Assembly (NCBI GenBank): GCA_964592105.1
Contig: CAZQBL010000013.1
Span: 17,706-81,705 of the forward strand
Source: an uncultured Gammaproteobacteria bacterium
GTDB lineage: Bacteria > Patescibacteriota > Patescibacteriia > UBA10025 > JAHIVO01
DNA: 64,000 bases
Direction: 5' to 3'
Below the pieces are notes generated by a model. It was not told the origin of the DNA. It was given only the letters and a program-made list of their open reading frames with translations, and ran no database searches. Position numbers and translations under genes: made by a program. Positions 16,044 to 48,264 of this stretch are shown piece by piece. Numbering within the stretch: the first letter of the stretch is position 1; every line of letters begins with the position of its first letter.

Positions 16044-18137
16044 TTATCTTCCCTTTGGCGCACCATTTGTTTTCGCCCCGATGATCTGTTCCGTGACATT
16101 GCGCGGCACGATCTGATAGTTAGAAAATTCCATGGAATACGAAGCTCGGCCTTGTGACATGGAGCGGAGCTGAGTGGCATAGCCGAACATCTCTGCCAAC
16201 GGAACTGTGGCATCGATTATCTTCATCATACCGCGTTCGCGCATCTCATTGATGCTAGCGCGCTTTGAATTTAAATCACCAATAATATCCCCCATGAATT
16301 TTTCCGGGGTGACTACTTCAACCTTCATAATCGGCTCCAAAAGTACCAGGCCCGCGCGTCGTGATGCTTCTTGAAGGGCTATTGAACCGGCAATTTTAAA
16401 AGCCGCTTCTGACGAATCAACTTCATGATAACTACCATCAAGCAGTGTCGCCTTAATATCAACCAACGGGTAATGAGCCAAAACACCTCGCTCCATGGCT
16501 TCTTTGATGCCTTTTTCAATCGGAGCAATATATTCCCTGGGTATGTTGCCACCCTTGACTTCATCAACGAATTCAAAACCTTCACCGCGATTCTTAGGCT
16601 CCACCCGAATTATACAATGACCGTATTGACCGCGACCGCCGGACTGACGAATGTATTTACCTTCGGCCTCGGCAATTTTGGTAATAGTCTCTTTATAAGC
16701 AACCTGGGGCCGACCAACATTGGCTTCAACTTTAAACTCTCGCCTCATACGGTCGACAATAATATCCAAATGCAACTCGCCCATGCCGGAAATGATTGTC
16801 TGATTAATTTCCTCGTCGGATTTAATGCGAAAAGTCGGGTCTTCCTCAGCCAGTTTAGCCAGGGCCAAGCCCATTTTTTCCTGATCTGCCTTGGTCTTGG
16901 GCTCGATGGCCACGGAAATGACCGGCTCGGGAAAAGTAATTGATTCTAAAACAATAGGGTTGTCAGGATCACACAAGGTATTACCAGTAGTCGTATTTTT
17001 CAAACCAACAGCAGCAGCAATCTCCCCAGCAAAAACCTCCTTAACTTCCTCGCGATGGTTTGCGTGCATACGCACAATGCGACCCACGCGTTCTTTGAAA
17101 TCCTTCGTGGTATTCAGAACATAGGAACCAGCATCAATTTTTCCTGAATAAACTCGGAAAAAAGTCAACGTACCTACGTAGGGGTCCGTAGCCACTTTGA
17201 AAGCCAGAGCGGAAAATGGCTGATTATCGTCTGCCAAACGCTCAATTTCCCCCTTTGTCTTGGGATCAATTCCTTTAACCGGCGGTATGTCCAAAGGTGA
17301 AGGCAAATATTCAACCACCGCGTCCAACAAAAACTGAATTCCCTTATTTTTCAACGCCGAACCCACTAAGATAGGCATAATCTTATTTTCAATTGTAGCC
17401 CGTCTCAGCACGCGCCGCAACTCTTCATTGGAAATATCCTGATTGTCCAGATATTTTTGCAAAAGCGCGTCGTCCTGTTCAGCTATTTTTTCTACCATGG
17501 CGTGGCGGTATTCCTCAACTTTATCCTTCATATCCTCCGGAATGGTCGTTTCTTCAAATTCCTTACCTAAATCATCTTTATAAATAACTGCTTTTCGCTC
17601 GAATAAATCAATAATTCCTTTAAAATTTACTTCGGCGCCAATAGGTAATTGAATTGGTACGGCGTTGGGGGTAAGACGCTCTTTGATGGCTGTCACATCA
17701 GCATAAAAATCAGCTCCTGTTCTGTCCATTTTATTTATAAAACCCATCAGCGGAACCTTAAACTTTTCCGCCTGATGGAAAACAGTCTCTGACTGTGGTT
17801 CCACACCGGCCACGCCGTCAAAAACAATAAAACCGCCGTCCAGCACACGCAAACTACGCTGCACCTCAACGGTAAAATCAATATGCCCTGGAGTATCGAT
17901 CAAATTCAGACGATGACCCTTCCAGAAACAGGTCGTGGCCGCGGAAGTAATGGTAATACCGCGTTCTTTTTCTTGTTCCATCCAGTCCATTTCCGCCGCA
18001 CCCTCATGAACCTCTCCAATCTTGTGCTTTTTTCCGGTATAAAAAAGTATCCGCTCGGAGACGGTAGTCTTACCGGCGTCAATATGAGCTATCACGCCGA
18101 TATTTCTGGTCTTTTCTAAACTGTATTCACGAGGCAT
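16044..18137 (-). CDS. fusA: elongation factor G
   Basis: [17 protein letters not shown]; 697 aa. Confidence 0.95.
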
Positions 18138-40576: not shown

Positions 40577-40653
40577 CGGGGTATGGCGCAGTTGGCTAGC
40601 GCGCATGCATGGGGTGCATGAGGCCGTGGGTTCAAGTCCCACTACCCCGACCA
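40577..40653 (+). tRNA. tRNA-Pro (anticodon GGG), CCA encoded
   Basis: Cloverleaf folded by hand: acceptor CGGGGTA/TACCCCG, D-stem GCGC/GCGC, anticodon stem CATGC/GCATG with loop ATGGGGT, T-arm GTGGG-TTCAAGT-CCCAC. Confidence 0.85.
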
Positions 40654-40697
40654 AGTTAGACTTTTTTGAAATTCAGAGGCGATTGGTTGCTCGCTCG

Positions 40698-40761
40698 CCG
40701 CGCCTTTGGCGCGGAAAGCAGACGGGCAAAAATTCCTTCCCCCCAACCCCCTCTTTCCGCC
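40698..40761. repeat. left GC-rich flank repeat: hairpin CCGCGCC-TTT-GGCGCGG plus motif GGGCAAAAATTCCTTCC
   Basis: Imperfect inverted copy of 48005-48098 (17/17 core match, ~75% over ~65 nt). Confidence 0.5.
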
Positions 40762-40921
40762 ACGTCCTCGCTTTGAATGCCGTCGGAATTTGTATTTTGT
40801 TTCGCAAAATGCGTCGCAAGAAAAAGAAGTATTGCCCTTGCCCCAGCCCACCCGTGCGCGGGCGACAACAAGAAACTTCCTATTTGTTGACTAAACAAAT
40901 TAAATTGTGTACTATAATGTT

Positions 40922-40972
40922 AGTATTAGTCATCTAATTGTAGATAAATTATTGTATTTTAATACTAATACT
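40922..40972. promoter_or_regulatory. 9-bp inverted repeat AGTATTAGT...ACTAATACT upstream of XRE regulator gene
   Basis: Seen directly, ends 12 bp before the XRE start codon; candidate autoregulatory operator (C-box-like). Confidence 0.35.
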
Positions 40973-40983
40973 ATCATACCATA

Positions 40984-41196
40984 ATGTCAATGAAAAAAAC
41001 AACAATAGCAAAGAATATAAAGAAGTTGCGAAAGCAACGGGGTTTGTCGCAGGACAAATTGTCCAAATTGGCTAATATTTCCCATAATACGATCATAAAA
41101 ATTGAGTCCGGCGCCATACAAAGCCCGACAATGGACACGGCAAGCAAAATCGCCAAAGCCCTTGGCGTTTCGCTTGATGATTTAGTCAACAAATAA
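40984..41196 (+). CDS. XRE-family helix-turn-helix transcriptional regulator (possible R-M controller protein)
   Basis: IKKLRKQRGLSQDKLSKLANISHNTIIKIESG HTH_3 motif; 70 aa; 4 nt before hsdR. Confidence 0.8.
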   Translation: MSMKKTTIAKNIKKLRKQRGLSQDKLSKLANISHNTIIKIESGAIQSPTMDTASKIAKALGVSLDDLVNK

Positions 41197-41200
41197 AATT

Positions 41201-43705
41201 ATGCAAAAAGAAGCCAAGGCCAGAATAAAAATCAATGAGTTGCTTCAAAATGCCGGCTGGAGATTTTTTGATGATGAAAACGGAAAAGCAAATATTGTTT
41301 TGGAAAACAACGCCAAAATCACAAAGCAAGCCATTGATGAATTTGGCAACGATTTTGAAAAAACCAAAAAAGGATTTATTGATTTTTTATTGCTTGATGA
41401 CAAGGGATTTCCACTGGTAGTTTTAGAGGCAAAATCGGAAGACAAAGACCCGCTTGACGGCAAAGAGCAGGCCCGCCGTTATGCCCAATCTCAAAACGCT
41501 CGCTTTATTATACTTTCAAACGGCAATCTTCATTACTTTTGGGATTTGGAACGAGGCAATCCGGCAATTATTACTACTTTCCCAACTTATGAATCTTTGA
41601 AGCATTTGGAAACTTTCAAACCGAGCTTTTCAATTCTTTCAGAGGAAAAAGTTGAAAGCGATTATATTGTTCAAACGCAAAACCCGACTTATCAAAAAGA
41701 TCCTCGATGGATTGATGAAACGCAAAGAGCAGATTTTATCAAAGAGCAAGATTTGAAATTTTTGCGCCCCTATCAATTAGCTGCAGTTCATGCTTTGCAA
41801 AATTCGGCGAAGAAAGGAAATGACCGCTATCTTTTTGAAATGGCGACCGGAACAGGCAAGACACTTGTTTCAGCCGGTGTGATTAAACTTTTTTTGAAAA
41901 CAGGAAACGCTAAAAGAATTTTGTTTTTGGTTGACCGGTTAGAATTGGAAGACCAAGCGTACAAAAATTTCAAAAAAATCCTGCATAACGATTTTAACAG
42001 TGTGATTTACAAAGAAAATCGCGATGACTGGCGAAAGGCGGAAATTGTTGTTTCAACTGTGCAAAGTTTATCGTTTGACAATAAATACAAAAAACTTTTT
42101 TCGCCCACTGATTTTGACTTGATAATTTCTGATGAAGCCCATCGCTCCATTGGCGGAAACAGCCGCGCTGTTTTTGAGTATTTTGTCGGCTATAAATTAG
42201 GGCTTACGGCAACACCGAAAGATTATCTCAAAAACATTGACCCGCAAAAAATCAGCGAAAAAGACCCGCGAGCGTGGGAACGTCGCCAGCTTTTAGACAC
42301 TTACACAACTTTTGGCTGTCCTTCCGGCGAGCCGACTTTCCGTTATAGTTTGCTGGACGGCGTAAAAGACGGCTATCTTGTCAATCCGGTTGTCGCAGAC
42401 GCGAGAACTGAAATCACCACCGAGCTTTTATCCGAAAAAGGTTATGCCTTGATGGTTGAAAATGAGGAAGGCATAGAGGAAGAACAAACCTTTTTTCAAA
42501 AAGATTTCGAACGAAAGTTTTTTTCAGAAAAAACCAATCAGATTTTCTGCAAAACATTTTTGGAAAACGCGCTTAAAGACCCAATCAGCGACGAAATCGG
42601 CAAGAGCATTGTTTTTTGCGTCAACCAAAAACATGCTTCAAAAGTTACCCAAATCTTAAACCAGTTTGCTGATCAACTTTGGCCCGGCAAATATAATTCC
42701 GATTTTGCCGTGCAAGTTACCTCCAATATCAAAGACGCACAGCAATTTACTATCAATTTCGCAAACAACAACTTAAACGGCCAAACAAAATGGCTAGCGG
42801 GCTATAAATCCAGCAAAACCAGAGTTTGCGTAACTGTCGGCATGATGACGACCGGCTACGACTGCCAGGATATTTTGAATCTTTGTTTGATGCGTCCGAT
42901 TTTTTCACCGACTGATTTTATCCAAATTAAAGGACGAGGCACAAGAAAATATACATTTAAATACAAAGATGCTGATAGTGAAGAAATAATAGCAGAAAAA
43001 GAAACTTTTAAACTTTTTGATTTCTTTGCTAATTGTGAATATTTTGAAGAAAAATATAATTATGACCAAGTTTTGCAATTACCGATTAAAACTGGAACAC
43101 GAACGGAGGGCGGCGAAGGTGTTGATATTGACGAGGTGAGCATTTTTAATCCTGATCCGCTCAAAACTTTTTCGGAAAAAGCCGTCGGCCTTGCCGGCAT
43201 GAAAGTTGACTGGAAGCTGTTTGAAAAGTTTGAACAAACTGTAAAAAATGATCCAATAGTTAAGCAAAAATACGAACAAGGAGATATTCAAGGCGTTGAA
43301 GAATATGTCAAAGGGGAAATTTTTGAAAAGCCTGAGGATTACTTCAATCTGGAAAAGCTGCGCAAAGCAGTTAAGGCCGACCGACGCATCACACTTAGAG
43401 AATTTATTGAAAAAATTTTTGGCGGTATAAAGAAATTTAAAACCAAAGACGAGCTTTTGGAAGAAGAATTTGAAAAGTTTGTTGCGATTTACAAGCCAGA
43501 TAATAAATATGCACTGCTTATCAAAAATTATCTCAAGGCGTATATCACTGATCCGGAAATCCGCGACATTGTGGAAACCAAAGAATACAGCCGTTTTGCC
43601 ACTAATCCAAAAGTTACGATGAAAGACTTTCGCGACCTAAACGGCTGGCGAGAAGTTGTGCCGGAATACGTCAAAGATTATGTGTCGCTTAATACTTTTA
43701 TGTAA
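41201..43705 (+). CDS. hsdR: type I restriction enzyme R subunit (HsdR; PD-(D/E)xK N-domain + SF2 helicase + EcoEI_R_C-like tail)
   Basis: N-terminus NELLQNAGW, DFLLLDD...VVLEAK nuclease motif; ATGTGKT (motif I), DEAH; 834 aa. Confidence 0.85.
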   Translation: MQKEAKARIKINELLQNAGWRFFDDENGKANIVLENNAKITKQAIDEFGNDFEKTKKGFIDFLLLDDKGFPLVVLEAKSEDKDPLDGKEQARRYAQSQNARFIILSNGNLHYFWDLERGNPAIITTFPTYESLKHLETFKPSFSILSEEKVESDYIVQTQNPTYQKDPRWIDETQRADFIKEQDLKFLRPYQLAAVHALQNSAKKGNDRYLFEMATGTGKTLVSAGVIKLFLKTGNAKRILFLVDRLELEDQAYKNFKKILHNDFNSVIYKENRDDWRKAEIVVSTVQSLSFDNKYKKLFSPTDFDLIISDEAHRSIGGNSRAVFEYFVGYKLGLTATPKDYLKNIDPQKISEKDPRAWERRQLLDTYTTFGCPSGEPTFRYSLLDGVKDGYLVNPVVADARTEITTELLSEKGYALMVENEEGIEEEQTFFQKDFERKFFSEKTNQIFCKTFLENALKDPISDEIGKSIVFCVNQKHASKVTQILNQFADQLWPGKYNSDFAVQVTSNIKDAQQFTINFANNNLNGQTKWLAGYKSSKTRVCVTVGMMTTGYDCQDILNLCLMRPIFSPTDFIQIKGRGTRKYTFKYKDADSEEIIAEKETFKLFDFFANCEYFEEKYNYDQVLQLPIKTGTRTEGGEGVDIDEVSIFNPDPLKTFSEKAVGLAGMKVDWKLFEKFEQTVKNDPIVKQKYEQGDIQGVEEYVKGEIFEKPEDYFNLEKLRKAVKADRRITLREFIEKIFGGIKKFKTKDELLEEEFEKFVAIYKPDNKYALLIKNYLKAYITDPEIRDIVETKEYSRFATNPKVTMKDFRDLNGWREVVPEYVKDYVSLNTFM

Positions 43706-43736: not shown

Positions 43737-46181
43737 ATGCTCACTCAAGAAACCAAAAGAAAAATTGACTCCGCCCGCGATATTTTGGTCGGCAAAGTGC
43801 CGGACCCCAAAGCGCAAGTTGAGCAAATCACCACCGCTTTAATTTACAAGTTTATGGACGATATGGACAAAGAAGCGCAGGAGCTTGGCGGCAAAGCGCG
43901 CTTTTTTACCAACGGCTACGAAAAATACGCGTGGACAAAATTGATGGACGCCAAACTTGGCGGACACGAGCGTCTTGATTTATATCTTGAAGCGATTACT
44001 TTTTTATCTCGCAATCCGCATATCCCCCAGCTTTTCCGCGACATTTTCAAAGACGCATTTTTGCCGTATCGCGACTCCGAAACTCTGAATTTATTTTTGA
44101 AAGAAATTAACGGATTTACTTATGACCATAGCGAAGATTTAGGCGATGCTTTTGAATATCTGCTTTCAATTCTTGGCTCACAAGGCGACGCTGGACAATT
44201 CCGCACGCCACGCCATATTATTGATTTTATTGTGGCGGCGGTTGCTCCGAAAAAAGACGAAACAATATGCGACCCCGCTTGCGGAACGGCTGGATTTTTA
44301 ATTTCTGCCTATAAGCATATTCTGAAAACAAATAAAGAAAAACCCTTGACTCCGGACGAGCGGAAAAAATTGATGGATCATTTTGTCGGCTATGATATTT
44401 CGCCTGATATGGTGCGGCTTTCCAAAGTCAATTTATATCTGCACGGTTTTCCAAACCCAACCATTTTTGAATACGATACACTCACGAGCGAAGAAAAATG
44501 GGAAGACAATTTTGACGTGATGCTGGCCAATCCGCCGTTCATGTCGCCCAAAGGCGGCATCCGCCCGCATAAGAGGTTTTCGGTGCAAGCCAATCGCGCG
44601 GAAGTCCTGTTTGTTGATTATATTTTAGAACATCTAAAACCCAACGGCCGAGCCGGCATTATCGTGCCGGAAGGGATAATTTTTCAATCTGCCAATGCTT
44701 ACAAACAATTGCGTAAAAACTTGATTGAAGACGGCCTTTTTGCCGTTGTCTCTCTGCCGCCGGGCGTCTTTCAGCCGTATTCAGGAGTAAAGACTAGCGT
44801 TTTGCTTTTTGATAATGCTTTAGCTAAGAAAACAAAAGACCTTTTATTTTTGAAAATTAAAAACGACGGCTATGACCTTGGCGCGCAAAGGCGGGAAATA
44901 GATAAAAATGATTTGCCGTTAGCGTTAGAAATAATCAAAAAATACAAAAACGCATTAAAAGAAAGCAATGAATTTAAATTGAACGAGAAGCAGGCAAAAA
45001 TCGCTCATCTTGTTGCCAAAGAAAAAATTGCTCAAAGTGGTGATTATAATCTTTCTGGAGATAGATACATAGAAACTGTGAATTTCGTCAATCAAAAATG
45101 GCCATTGGTGGAGTTGCAAAAAGTTACTAAGATTGATTGGGGTAACACTGAACTAACGAAGAAATCTTATATTAAGAATGGTGAATTTCTCGGTGTGAGC
45201 GCTACCGGCGCTGATGGTCGAATTAATCATTTTGAGCACGAAGTTGGTGTTACTGTTCTGTCTGCAATCGGCGCAAATTGTGGTAAGGTATTTTATCCGA
45301 CCGAAAAATTTACTGCTATAAAAAATACAATCACTATTACGCCTGATAGTAAGAAATTGAAGCCAAAATTTCTGTTCTACATAATGAAAAGTAATACCTT
45401 GCCTAAACGAGGTGGCGGTCAACCTTTTATGTCAAAAGGTGATGTTGAAAAGTATAAAATCCCCCTTCCGCCGCTTGAAGTTCAAAAAGAAATCGTTGAG
45501 CAAATTGAAGTAAAACAAAAAGCCATTGAAGCCGCCAAAGCGGTAATTGAAAATCTTGAGAGAGAGAGACGCTATTTTGGCCAGTCACTTAGGAAATTAG
45601 AAGATGTTGAGTGGGTAGAGTTAGAAAAAGTTGCTAACTTTTTTGAAGATGGTAATTGGATTGAGAGCAAGGATCAAGCAGACAACGGTATAAGACTTAT
45701 TCAAACTGGAAATATCGGCATAGGCGAGTATTTAGATAAAGCAGAAAAATCGCGCTTCGTTTCCGAAAATACATTCAAGAAATTAAAGTGTACAGAAATT
45801 TTTGAAGGTGATATTTTAATTTCGCGATTACCCGATCCAGTTGGTCGTGCTTGTTTGCTACCAAAATTAGAAACAAGAGCGATCACAGCAGTTGATTGTA
45901 CTATTGTTAGATTTGACAATAAAAAAGTTATTCCGAAATTCTTCCTATTATATTCAATGACTGGTGATTATTTTAGTAGTCTTGCTCAATACTTAACCGG
46001 TGCAAGTAGGCAAAGGATAAGTCGTCTTAATTTAGGAAAGGTTAAAATCCCACTCCCACAGCTTGAAGTCCAAAAACAGCTGGTTGCAGATATGGAAGAG
46101 CAGGAAAAAATCATTGAGGTGAATAAAAAATTGATAAAGATATTGGAGCAAAAAATTTCTGATGTTTTAAGAGAAATATAG
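43737..46181 (+). CDS. fused type I R-M methyltransferase-specificity protein (HsdM N6-adenine MTase + two HsdS target-recognition domains)
   Basis: GQFRTPRHII, DPACGTAGFL (motif I), NPPF (motif IV); C-terminal half has two TRDs each followed by conserved coiled-coil spacer (PLPPLEVQKEIV... / IPLPQLEVQKQLV...). Confidence 0.85.
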   Translation: MLTQETKRKIDSARDILVGKVPDPKAQVEQITTALIYKFMDDMDKEAQELGGKARFFTNGYEKYAWTKLMDAKLGGHERLDLYLEAITFLSRNPHIPQLFRDIFKDAFLPYRDSETLNLFLKEINGFTYDHSEDLGDAFEYLLSILGSQGDAGQFRTPRHIIDFIVAAVAPKKDETICDPACGTAGFLISAYKHILKTNKEKPLTPDERKKLMDHFVGYDISPDMVRLSKVNLYLHGFPNPTIFEYDTLTSEEKWEDNFDVMLANPPFMSPKGGIRPHKRFSVQANRAEVLFVDYILEHLKPNGRAGIIVPEGIIFQSANAYKQLRKNLIEDGLFAVVSLPPGVFQPYSGVKTSVLLFDNALAKKTKDLLFLKIKNDGYDLGAQRREIDKNDLPLALEIIKKYKNALKESNEFKLNEKQAKIAHLVAKEKIAQSGDYNLSGDRYIETVNFVNQKWPLVELQKVTKIDWGNTELTKKSYIKNGEFLGVSATGADGRINHFEHEVGVTVLSAIGANCGKVFYPTEKFTAIKNTITITPDSKKLKPKFLFYIMKSNTLPKRGGGQPFMSKGDVEKYKIPLPPLEVQKEIVEQIEVKQKAIEAAKAVIENLERERRYFGQSLRKLEDVEWVELEKVANFFEDGNWIESKDQADNGIRLIQTGNIGIGEYLDKAEKSRFVSENTFKKLKCTEIFEGDILISRLPDPVGRACLLPKLETRAITAVDCTIVRFDNKKVIPKFFLLYSMTGDYFSSLAQYLTGASRQRISRLNLGKVKIPLPQLEVQKQLVADMEEQEKIIEVNKKLIKILEQKISDVLREI

Positions 46182-46183
46182 TT

Positions 46184-47914
46184 ATGTTTATCAAATCCCT
46201 TACAATCAAAAATTTTCGCTGTTTCGGAAAAGGAACGGACGAAAAAGGCACAACAATAAACTTAAATAATGGCTTAACCGCTTTTATCGGCAGAAACGGA
46301 AGCGGCAAAACTGCTATTTTGGAAGCGTTGAATTTTTTAATCGGCTCGGATTATTTGCCGACAAAAATTAATGAGAAAGATTTTAACAGTGACGCAAAAG
46401 ATATAAAAGACGAGATTGTAATTGAGGGCGAGACGGAAAAGCCGTTTTTTGCAACACTTGATGTTCGCTCAAACACCAATCAGCTTGAAACAATTATTAT
46501 TCCCTGCAATAAAATCAAGCTCACGATTAAGCGGCGAGAAAAACCGGAAAAGGTTTTAGACGATCCTTTTATCATCAATAAGTATGTTTTGCCGATTGTT
46601 GGCGATATTGATGAGAGTATTTTTGAAGAAGATGAAAAAGCGCGCAAAGCCTCTAGGATTGACCAAATCAAAGAAGGTTATACCGTTTTTTACAAACTTA
46701 AAGACGGGCAAGAGCGTAATGCCAAAGTAATAAGTTATCAGCTTACTTACAATCCAAATCGCCTGACAAAATGTCCAAAATCTTACTATCTCTCAAAGGA
46801 CAGAGACGATGATGTTGCCGGCAATTATTCTCTTATCGCGAAAATTTTAACCGACCTGCATTGGAAGTATAAGAAAAAGCAGGCAGGCGGCGAAAATACG
46901 ATTTCCTGCGAATATAACACGCTTGCCGGATCGTTACGGGGCATTGTGGACGAAAAGAGCATATTGATTAACAGAATAAACGAAAAAGTAAAAGCGATTT
47001 GTTGCGATGACAAAAATTTTCAGATTGATTTTATTGATATTGACCAACCTTACAAATCAGCTTTTGTCGCAAAAAAGGAAGGCAAAAAATTGCTTTTGCC
47101 TGACAATCTTGGCTCTGGTTTTAACATCTTGATTGCTTACGCTCTTTTTGCGTATGTCGCCGACCAAGAGAAAATCCCTATTGTTTTGATTATTGACGAG
47201 CCGGAACTGCATATGCATAGCGACTGGCAAAAGAAAATGTATGAGGTTTTTACCAAACAAACCGATCTGCAATTCGTTTATTCCACCCAATCTGAAAATT
47301 TTATTTCGTTGAAAAACTGGAAACAAATCCGTTCAATTTCAGATTTTCAAGTTTTTCCAAAAAAGGAGATTTTACAAGAGCAGATCACCGCAACAGATGG
47401 ACAAAATGGAACAAGGGCGGATTATCTTGATGATTACGCAACAAAAAATTTGCATATCAGTACAATATTGCGCGAAAATCTTGAGTTATTTTTTGCCAAA
47501 AAATGCGTTTTGGTCGAAGGCCCGTCGGAAAAATATGGCTTGCCGAAACTTTTGAAACTTTCCAGCTGTGATGTTGATAATTTTTCTGTTTCAATAATTC
47601 CGGCGTGGGGCAAAACGAAAATCAAAAATTATCAAATGATTTGTAAAGTTTTTGGCATAGATTACTTTACGATTTATGACAATGATAAAGCGGAAGACGA
47701 TGAACCGACAAACGAAAACACAGCGATTGAAAATAACGCCGAAAATGGAAAGAAGACAAGATTTTCAACAAGTTTTGAGGCAAAACTGGGAGTAACCGGG
47801 GAGAGTAAATTTCAAAAGTTGGTGAAAAAGATTGATGAGATAACCGATACAAACTCTTTGGATCAAGAAATTAAAACTTGTTTGAGCAACCTAAAAACCT
47901 TTATTGAAAGCTAA
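46184..47914 (+). CDS. OLD-family nuclease (N-terminal ABC/AAA_15-type ATPase + C-terminal Toprim)
   Basis: Walker A GRNGSGKTAILEAL; Toprim VLVEGPSEKYGLPKLL ... YDNDKAED; start 3 nt after hsdMS stop. Confidence 0.8.
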   Translation: MFIKSLTIKNFRCFGKGTDEKGTTINLNNGLTAFIGRNGSGKTAILEALNFLIGSDYLPTKINEKDFNSDAKDIKDEIVIEGETEKPFFATLDVRSNTNQLETIIIPCNKIKLTIKRREKPEKVLDDPFIINKYVLPIVGDIDESIFEEDEKARKASRIDQIKEGYTVFYKLKDGQERNAKVISYQLTYNPNRLTKCPKSYYLSKDRDDDVAGNYSLIAKILTDLHWKYKKKQAGGENTISCEYNTLAGSLRGIVDEKSILINRINEKVKAICCDDKNFQIDFIDIDQPYKSAFVAKKEGKKLLLPDNLGSGFNILIAYALFAYVADQEKIPIVLIIDEPELHMHSDWQKKMYEVFTKQTDLQFVYSTQSENFISLKNWKQIRSISDFQVFPKKEILQEQITATDGQNGTRADYLDDYATKNLHISTILRENLELFFAKKCVLVEGPSEKYGLPKLLKLSSCDVDNFSVSIIPAWGKTKIKNYQMICKVFGIDYFTIYDNDKAEDDEPTNENTAIENNAENGKKTRFSTSFEAKLGVTGESKFQKLVKKIDEITDTNSLDQEIKTCLSNLKTFIES

Positions 47915-48098: not shown

Positions 48099-48264
48099 AA
48101 GTCAGTCAAAGTTTTGCTCAAAATAGGTTCGCACCTCGTCCAATAATTGCGACCAAGTTAAACATTGCGAAATTGAAAAACTTTACTTATTTTATTATAT
48201 TATAGAAATATTACAAAATTTTACCAATACGAAACCCGCTTATAATTTAGCGGGTTTTAAAAAA

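Follow-up and report, generated by a model that had tools for sequence, protein, structure and literature searches.

What can a restriction-modification (RM) locus do when its methyltransferase (MTase) and specificity subunits are one protein and no further MTase gene is present, given that type I enzymes are defined by separate R, M and S polypeptides in an R2M2S1 ratio? This question is raised by a locus on the plus strand of a 64,000-nucleotide (nt) stretch of DNA (hereafter the window; positions 17,706 to 81,705 of contig CAZQBL010000013.1, assembly GCA_964592105.1) from an uncultured bacterium of the Patescibacteriota. In this locus the hsdMS gene (43737–46181) encodes an 814-amino-acid (aa) fusion of HsdM and HsdS (M~S) in one chain, and is preceded by hsdR (41201–43705), encoding an HsdR of 834 aa. 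The term 'Type IMS' was coined in 2012 (Roberts et al.) for a fusion of EcoKI and covers proteins with one or two target-recognition domains (TRDs) next to a separate HsdR (PMC3510504), a definition into which the window locus falls. Judging from its sequence, we give a probability of roughly 80% that the locus is a functional, natural type I RM system of this layout, with hsdR and hsdMS as the core, plus a helix-turn-helix (HTH) regulator gene and a passenger OLD gene in one operon.

The hsdMS open reading frame (ORF) is one unbroken frame of 814 codons with an ATG start. The initial annotation had read its product as a single HsdM with two TRDs and their helical spacers, and had proposed Pfam domain mapping as a check; Pfam indeed places N6_Mtase at aa 133–448 (E 9.7e-55) and Methylase_S in two stretches (E 3.1e-29, best 454–608), and PADLOC, AlphaFold2 and Foldseek agree with that reading. 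Specifically, the PADLOC type I MTase model spans aa 1–463, including the HsdM N-domain (E 1.7e-99), and the Specificity_I models span aa 453–609 and 571–805. The HsdM N-terminal domain (aa 1–130; 43737–44126), which is covered by the PADLOC MTase_I model from residue 1 and by the 2OKC match from aa 33, consists of nearly invariant alignment columns and is probably the region that contacts HsdR. It is followed by a gamma-class N6-adenine MTase core (aa 133–448; 44133–45080; matching 5YBB_A with E 1.5e-43), in which both of the motifs quoted in the initial annotation were located, i.e., motif I DPACGTAGFL at aa 179–188 (44271–44300) and motif IV NPPF at aa 265–268 (44529–44540), NPPF being the sole motif IV present. 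An N-domain with motif I ahead of NPPF/Y is the arrangement of HsdM-type gamma-class MTases, and the 5YBB, 2OKC and 2Y7C structures match.

Beyond the core, an M-tail helix and the M–S junction (aa 393–456; 44913–45104; helix 393–408 in the structure model described below) lead into a first hypervariable TRD (TRD1, aa 457–573; 45105–45455) and a first conserved region (CR1, aa 574–632; 45456–45632), which starts with KIPLPPLEVQK and continues as a long helix. A second hypervariable domain (TRD2, aa 633–769; 45633–46043) and a second conserved region (CR2, aa 770–814; 46044–46178), in which KIPLPQLEVQK again precedes a long helix, complete the protein, with all four boundaries taken from alignments and the TRDs additionally from TRD clustering. 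Two TRDs alternating with two conserved helical regions form a type I specificity module of ordinary layout, and the new specificity arrangement that had been thought possible is thereby not borne out.

An AlphaFold2 monomer model built with 120 homologues reached a mean predicted local distance difference test score (pLDDT) of 82.7 and a predicted TM-score (pTM) of 0.53, replacing a run with 30 sequences whose M part was of insufficient quality (pLDDT 68, pTM 0.43). In the model, both TRDs are rich in beta structure and lead into a helix of ~40 residues each (580–619 and 776–813), and the linker of lowest confidence is the M–S junction at aa 446–452. When searched with Foldseek, it matched both HsdM chains (2OKC, with a TM-score normalised to the target (TMt) of 0.75; also 5YBB and 2Y7C_B) and complete two-TRD S subunits (2Y7C_A, TMt 0.67, root-mean-square deviation 3.6 over 411 columns; and 1YF2).

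The junction is bordered by YNLSGDRY (aa 437–444) and KWPLVEL (aa 454–460), and the element SGDYNLSGDRY-x9-KWPxVELGEV is kept in frame in alignments of 30 and of 120 sequences. Within the window, the S boundary showed no internal start with a Shine-Dalgarno/ribosome-binding site, and neither a conserved slippery site nor an in-frame stop was identified at the junction. A programmed frameshift at this position was rejected as a candidate, the stops in the other frames being what A-rich sequence gives. The initial annotation had pointed to a frameshifted junction, a single TRD or an assembly error as possible weak spots, none of which was encountered: two TRDs are present, the junction is in frame in more than 100 homologues, and the identical 814-aa product is encoded between the same neighbours on contigs from three independent samples, each assembled separately. 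The predicted protein is a complete HsdM joined to a complete two-TRD HsdS via a conserved junction of ~10 residues.

The partner gene hsdR ends 31 nt upstream of hsdMS and encodes a PD-(D/E)xK nuclease, a superfamily 2 (SF2) motor and a C-terminal domain. Pfam recognises HSDR_N (E 1e-07), ResIII (1e-40) and DEAD in this protein, the PADLOC REase_I model matches with E 2.1e-56, and the closest solved relative is an HsdR fragment of V. vulnificus (3H1T, E 5e-33). The residues D61, E76-x-K78 and Q90xxxY94 (41378–41482) are what we take, from established knowledge of HsdR nuclease domains, to be the nuclease motifs, and the motor (41840–42142) runs from the Walker A motif MATGTGKT (41840–41863) to DEAH (42131–42142), with GRGTR also present. 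A nuclease of this type fused to an SF2 motor is the hallmark of a type I HsdR, and both parts are intact in the predicted protein. The 'conventional 834-aa HsdR upstream' of the initial annotation is therefore there, but 'conventional' was an overstatement, since the curated cut-offs discussed below are missed.

The fusion has many relatives. Among 5.8 billion proteins searched, more than 100 match it over the whole length at 51–79% identity, all with N6_Mtase and Methylase_S, while the best 150 matches (E < 1e-135) among 1.84 billion 50%-identity representatives were mostly fused proteins of ~800 aa, with a second group of ~620–690 aa. Scanning one genome per GTDB species yielded full-length relatives in at least 570 species, hosts including Patescibacteria, Planctomycetota, Bacteroidota, Thermodesulfobacteriota, Cyanobacteria, Thiobacillus denitrificans RG and an archaeon. 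To follow HsdR, 80 related loci (designated by L numbers) were searched by tblastn, and a homologue was present in all 72 with enough surrounding DNA, mostly at full length and 52–88% identical; the remaining eight have less than 450 nt of upstream sequence. The homologue is partial in L026 and L049, and it is immediately upstream of hsdMS except in L050, where it lies downstream on the opposite strand. The gap between hsdR and hsdMS is at most 30 nt in 44 of 71 loci, and in ~23 loci 0.3–2.7 kb of unrelated genes lie between the two (including L005, L019, L032, L033, L039, L041, L044, L046, L054, L055, L056, L060–L062, L068, L070, L072, L073 and L082), encoding, for example, a 141-aa PDDEXK_3 protein (six loci), a 610-aa protein or a 350-aa protein. 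Such inserts of unrelated small genes are common in type I loci (PMC5100572).

When the M and S parts served as tblastn queries, neither the 64-kb window nor the DNA up to 10 kb from hsdMS in the 80 loci yielded a further hsdM or hsdS gene. Clustering at 90% identity placed HsdR in a cluster of 74 members and left M~S a singleton, and a conserved HsdR beside a variable M~S is the usual type I pattern. Across many phyla, the predicted hsdR and hsdMS genes are inherited together.

The family also reaches well-studied hosts, contrary to the rarity that the initial annotation had implied. A cassette on Escherichia coli IncF plasmids (L084; plasmid NZ_CP116482.1, 2215–9954) consists of a small ORF, an 849-aa HsdR homologue (60% identical), a 677-aa M~half-S protein (48% identical) and a 951-aa TrlF-family ATPase, and occurs at 99% identity or more on plasmids of 78 of the 5426 complete E. 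coli genomes. Its HsdR homologue is named no more than 'DEAD/DEAH box helicase family protein' and its M~half-S protein no more than 'N-6 DNA methylase', and the cassette likely represents an unrecognised type I system on clinical plasmids. A Paracoccus plasmid carries a two-TRD form that is 42% identical over its full length and adjoins the same helicase. The window locus is thus a member of a large, widespread and generically annotated family, and not a new kind of system.

Two relatives showed irregular structures. In a metagenome-assembled genome of Owenweeksia sp. (L037, 10001–14542), M~S runs on for ~650 residues without a stop, giving a protein of 1513 aa that ends in tandem TPR-like repeats (..AIEDFSQAIKLKPD..AYNNRGNAK..). 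In L024, an inverted copy of the first 27 M~S codons (positions 2–82 on the minus strand, 81% identical) lies ~190 nt upstream of the intact gene and may be a rearrangement scar.

The variation within the family was located almost entirely in the TRDs. In family alignments, conserved and variable stretches alternate, with M, CR1 and CR2 hardly changing and both TRDs hypervariable, and the 364 TRDs of 192 family proteins fell into 77 types when clustered at 45% identity or more. As many as 23 of the 77 types were shared by the two slots, and 141 distinct TRD1/TRD2 combinations occur among the 192 proteins. The TRD2 type of the window protein (NWIESKDQ..GIRLIQTGN..), for example, occupies slot 1 in the family proteins P0027, P0030, P0047, P0105 and P0108, and its TRD1 type occupies slot 2 in P0012. 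Such hypervariability and shuffling are the signature of what would be a working type I specificity module, and the sharing of types suggests that the two slots are equivalent, both presenting an adenine to an M.

Next to the two-TRD forms, 19 of the 192 proteins have a single TRD and a length of ~620–670 aa. Since they share a conserved alternative tail (..NLERERDAILAKRLEK), they are genuine M~half-S proteins and not truncations. A solved protein of this kind is the natural M~half-S 'minimal intact MTase' of V. vulnificus YJ016 (7EEW; Seo et al. 2022, as cited in PMC12429846), of which, on that account, two chains rebuild an M2S1 core with a 2M:2TRD ratio. By analogy with 7EEW, the single-TRD forms must pair one M per TRD, i.e., two M with two TRDs.

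How a chain with one M and two TRDs would work can be outlined from the type I mechanism. TRD1 and TRD2 would read the two halves of a bipartite asymmetric target, with the CR1/CR2 coiled coil setting the spacing, and the M domain would make N6-methyladenine (m6A) from S-adenosylmethionine. On an unmodified target, HsdR would dock on M, translocate DNA with ATP and cut at a distance. Because a chain provides a single M for its two TRDs and a free M gene is absent, the active core would most likely consist of two fusion chains, R2(M~S)2, in which the DNA-bound S borrows the M domain and M-tail helix of the second chain, whose own S module is left spare. We place about even odds on the second M coming from a second fusion chain in this way.

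Engineered proteins bear on this assembly. The EcoKI MSFusion was made by removing the frameshift between hsdM and hsdS, and was active in vivo with HsdR alone, whereas in vitro it needed added free HsdM (PMC3510504). Two fusions from S. aureus CC398-1, made as for EcoKI (Bower et al. 2018), both restrict with HsdR; of these, MSfus modifies both DNA strands, and part of it migrates at 325 kDa, a dimer-like size (PMC6158711). The EcoKI MSFusion and MSfus thus each carry out restriction as well as modification in vivo. As the TRD slots are interchangeable, the single-TRD siblings pair an M with each TRD and MSfus methylates both strands, both half-sites would be served by an M.

Several points weigh against a functional Type IMS system acting as two chains. 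NCBI's curated type I cut-offs are missed (TIGR00497 hsdM, 66.5 vs. 242.75 bits; TIGR00348 hsdR, 55.6 vs. 284.55; NF046051 EcoAI/FtnUII HsdR, 242 vs. 550), which is why the PGAP annotation pipeline names the family only 'N-6 DNA methylase' and 'DEAD/DEAH box helicase family protein'. The window protein and its two-TRD relatives are known from sequence alone and the host is uncultured, and the pTM makes the position of M relative to S unreliable in the model, so that the placement of M on S was left uninterpreted. Moreover, the EcoKI authors thought (M~S)2 less likely than a small amount of free HsdM (PMC3510504), and MSfus co-purified with a clipped, M-containing fragment as a possible second M (PMC6158711). 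These last two points belong to a reading in which the second MTase is a free M fragment derived from the fusion gene itself, by proteolysis at the junction, premature termination or stalling, so that R2·M·(M~S) would restore the R2M2S1 ratio. The purified EcoKI fusion cut only after free HsdM had been added, for which its authors preferred in vivo proteolysis or translational stalling as the source in the cell (PMC3510504); the fragment accompanying MSfus measured 73 kDa (M plus half of TRD1), and the preparation then needed no added HsdM (PMC6158711); and the least confident linker of our model, aa 446–452, lies exactly at the junction. Nevertheless, the window junction shows neither a conserved slippery site nor an in-frame stop and lacks an internal start linked to a ribosome-binding site, its strong conservation as protein favours a structured join over a linker meant only to be cleaved, and a family this large would hardly rely on adventitious proteolysis. 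We consider a free M fragment an unlikely source of the second MTase, behind a second fusion chain.

The simplest reading of the gene content, one M per chain, would be a monomer carrying a single motor (R1·M~S), in which both TRDs bind but methylation is limited to a single adenine of one strand. It would protect its host in the manner of type ISP enzymes (PMC3874165) and, reportedly, of the MmeI family (PMC2731913), which modify a single strand, yet this assembly is improbable and the least likely of the three: 23 of the 77 TRD types occur in both slots, which therefore seem equivalent, the single-TRD members necessarily pair one M per TRD (7EEW), and MSfus methylated both strands (PMC6158711). 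With a classical type I motor, a monomer would also leave one daughter duplex fully unmodified after each replication. More remote still is a role outside restriction, with M~S as an orphan or epigenetic MTase or as part of a MADS/BREX-like defence, and the 'HsdR' helicase serving another function. The best NCBIfam match of the fusion is in fact MADS MAD2, MAD5 matches as well, relatives bear generic PGAP names, and an ATPase gene (OLD, TrlF or AAA_13) follows hsdMS in several loci. These matches are weak, however (MAD2, 89.3 vs. 720 bits; MAD5, 33.4 vs. 400 bits), and MADS and BREX memberships were rejected on cut-offs and gene content, the operon containing no other mad or BREX genes. HsdR has HSDR_N motifs and a motor, with a type I HsdR as its closest solved relative, and each of the 72 informative loci has R together with M~S while the ATPase partners vary, which makes a non-restriction role very improbable. 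Finally, a sequencing, assembly or frameshift artefact joining hsdM and hsdS has a negligible probability in view of the identical product in three samples, the more than 100 in-frame homologues and the hundreds of species genomes. The reading as a functional Type IMS system is hence retained, and the stoichiometry question raised in the initial annotation is a legitimate one for its 1M:2TRD chain.

Within the window, the two core genes are part of the only plus-strand gene block (40.9–47.9 kb) in a minus-strand region. The block comprises four genes in the order HTH, hsdR, hsdMS and OLD, with intergenic gaps of 4, 31 and 2 nt, and across it (40–48 kb) the GC content is 0.37–0.40, versus 0.42–0.46, with a flip in GC skew. 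A tRNA-Pro(GGG) gene (40577–40653, plus strand; ARAGORN; Rfam tRNA 63.4 bits) lies ~330 nt upstream of the operon as a possible island border, and its 3′ end CGACCAAGTTA recurs 236 nt beyond the OLD gene as an imperfect direct repeat (48150–48166, plus strand; 17 nt with an 11-nt exact core) that may form the right border. The tRNA repeat, the GC dip and the strand switch suggest a 7.5-kb island inserted at the tRNA gene; against this reading, no integrase is present inside the putative island. In L011, the homologous HTH gene is preceded, at a distance of ~360 nt, by a tRNA-Ser gene.

The first gene of the block (40984–41196, plus strand) starts downstream of a promoter-like site TTGACT-17-TACTAT (40887–40915, plus strand), which is a consensus match with 9 of 12 positions in a consensus scan, and ends 4 nt ahead of hsdR. 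It encodes a 70-aa XRE-type HTH protein (Pfam HTH_3, E 1.2e-19), was called in three assemblies, and has homologues at the same position in L011, L013 and L060 (tblastn, 80 related loci). From its family and position, the protein is a candidate C-protein-like controller of the operon. A perfect 15-nt inverted repeat surrounds the gene, one arm (40881–40895, TATTTGTTGACTAAA) overlapping the –35 of the promoter-like site and the other (41181–41195, TTTAGTCAACAAATA) stopping 5 nt short of the hsdR ATG, and a second inverted repeat (40909–40930 / 40960–40979) spans the –10 and the leader. The 15-nt repeat was considered as a conserved operator pair, but is not conserved in L011, L013 and L060, which leaves an operator role unproven. 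A non-coding leader between the tRNA and HTH genes is kept in three genomes (window ~40697–40885; L060 2078–2268; L013 600–762); because of its conservation in the two other genomes, it appears to travel with the cassette. It includes a GC-rich hairpin (window ~40829–40866) with compensatory changes from C:G to G:C in L060 and from C:G to A:U in L013, a weak hint given the three sequences, and an Rfam search of the leader gave no match.

The last gene of the block (46184–47914, plus strand) encodes a 576-aa OLD-family ATPase-TOPRIM nuclease (Pfam AAA_15/AAA_21 and OLD-like_TOPRIM; PADLOC GajA and Old models) that is GajA/Old-like and carries the Walker A motif GRNGSGKT; no GajB-like helicase partner was seen adjoining it. 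Among the 80 related loci it recurs only in L008, which ruled out OLD as an obligate partner. Elsewhere, the slot after hsdMS is taken by a TrlF ATPase (E. coli), an AAA_13 ATPase (three loci), RadC (six loci) or a 293-aa Pfam-less protein (11 loci). Since OLD is confined to the window and L008, and HTH to the window, L011, L013 and L060, neither was counted as core. Type I loci are known to harbour restriction-linked ORFs such as PrrC and the Rlo genes, and by analogy we read the OLD gene as an accessory, restriction-linked passenger of the kind common in such loci.

For annotation, this reading would mean that a large two-gene type I family exists under generic names, and censuses requiring three separate subunits may undercount type I systems; the basic picture of RM is unchanged. 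The novelty implied by the initial annotation did not hold up either, as the family is preceded by Type IMS (2012), by 7EEW and by Dac11109IV. In the literature we did not find a natural two-TRD fusion described as the sole M of a system, which is weak evidence as REBASE was not covered. Two descriptions were set aside: 'HsdMS' of Pseudomonas, which looked like a natural fusion, is shorthand, PAO1 hsdM (PA2735) and hsdS (PA2734) being separate genes, and 'hsdRMS' of Anabaena (a preprint) is an RM fusion with a separate S, i.e., another layout.

Compared with classical type I enzymes (EcoKI for type IA, EcoAI for IB and EcoR124I for IC; R2M2S1), the window system has the functional modules, motifs, folds, conserved/variable pattern of S and TRD shuffling in common, but differs in its joined M and S and in its short HsdR (834 aa). 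The engineered Type IMS fusions have the same order as the window protein, with the C-terminus of HsdM joined to the N-terminus of a two-TRD HsdS and HsdR separate. They are, however, laboratory constructs from type IA and Sau1, whereas the window gene is natural, belongs to another HsdM/HsdR lineage, has a dedicated junction sequence and lacks a parental free hsdM.

Two natural fusions were also compared. 7EEW is the top Foldseek match of the window model (E 4.4e-28, with ~21% identity in the structural alignment) and is collinear with hsdMS aa 112–605, i.e., the M core, M-tail, TRD1 and CR1 (phmmer E 9.7e-37). While 7EEW contains a single TRD and a single CR, the window protein adds TRD2 and CR2, changing the ratio to 1M:2TRD per chain and setting it apart from the single-TRD/CR design of V. 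vulnificus with its symmetric homodimer. M2.Dac11109IV is a natural M2~S fusion from a type I system that makes N4-methylcytosine (m4C) and m6A and has a separate M1 (Morgan et al. 2016, PMC5100572). Both it and the window protein are natural type I MTase–S fusions, but only Dac11109IV obtains its second MTase from a separate M1; the PacII/Dac11109IV type has an NPPF M1 gene and an NPPY M2 gene, as opposed to the one M-like gene of the window, with NPPF only. Type ISP enzymes (LlaGI) combine all domains and one TRD in a single chain, whereas here there are two genes and two TRDs.

A parallel in stoichiometry lies in the type IIB/IIG enzymes AloI and CjeI (R~M~S), where one M is followed by two TRDs in one chain as in hsdMS, and whose 1RM:2TRD stoichiometry was called 'a mystery' in a 2014 review (PMC3874165). 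The C-terminal positions 858–1266 of the PADLOC type IIG model (1271 positions) match hsdMS aa 420–812; membership of type IIG, to which this weak match pointed, was rejected, as the model covers only that part and HsdR is encoded separately. AloI and CjeI carry an N-terminal PD-ExK nuclease in the same chain, have no ATP motor and make fixed cuts on both sides of the site, whereas the window protein begins with the HsdM N-domain and its nuclease resides on a separate, helicase-containing HsdR. The spare-S arrangement considered above for R2(M~S)2 matches the proposal made for single-chain type IIB AloI and CjeI. More tentatively, and on balance doubtfully, two-TRD Type IMS could constitute a widespread type I subclass of natural origin without free M, in which two chains act per target with the second S spare or on a second DNA site, and which would offer a two-gene model for the AloI/CjeI puzzle and a living counterpart of the fused intermediate between type I families proposed by Roberts et al. 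If so, these natural enzymes with one MTase per two TRDs and no spare M gene could show the assembly route for the EcoKI fusion and for AloI/CjeI types, and the one- and two-TRD forms on one M/CR scaffold would document natural steps between type I and type IIG/IIB, steps that engineering has reproduced.

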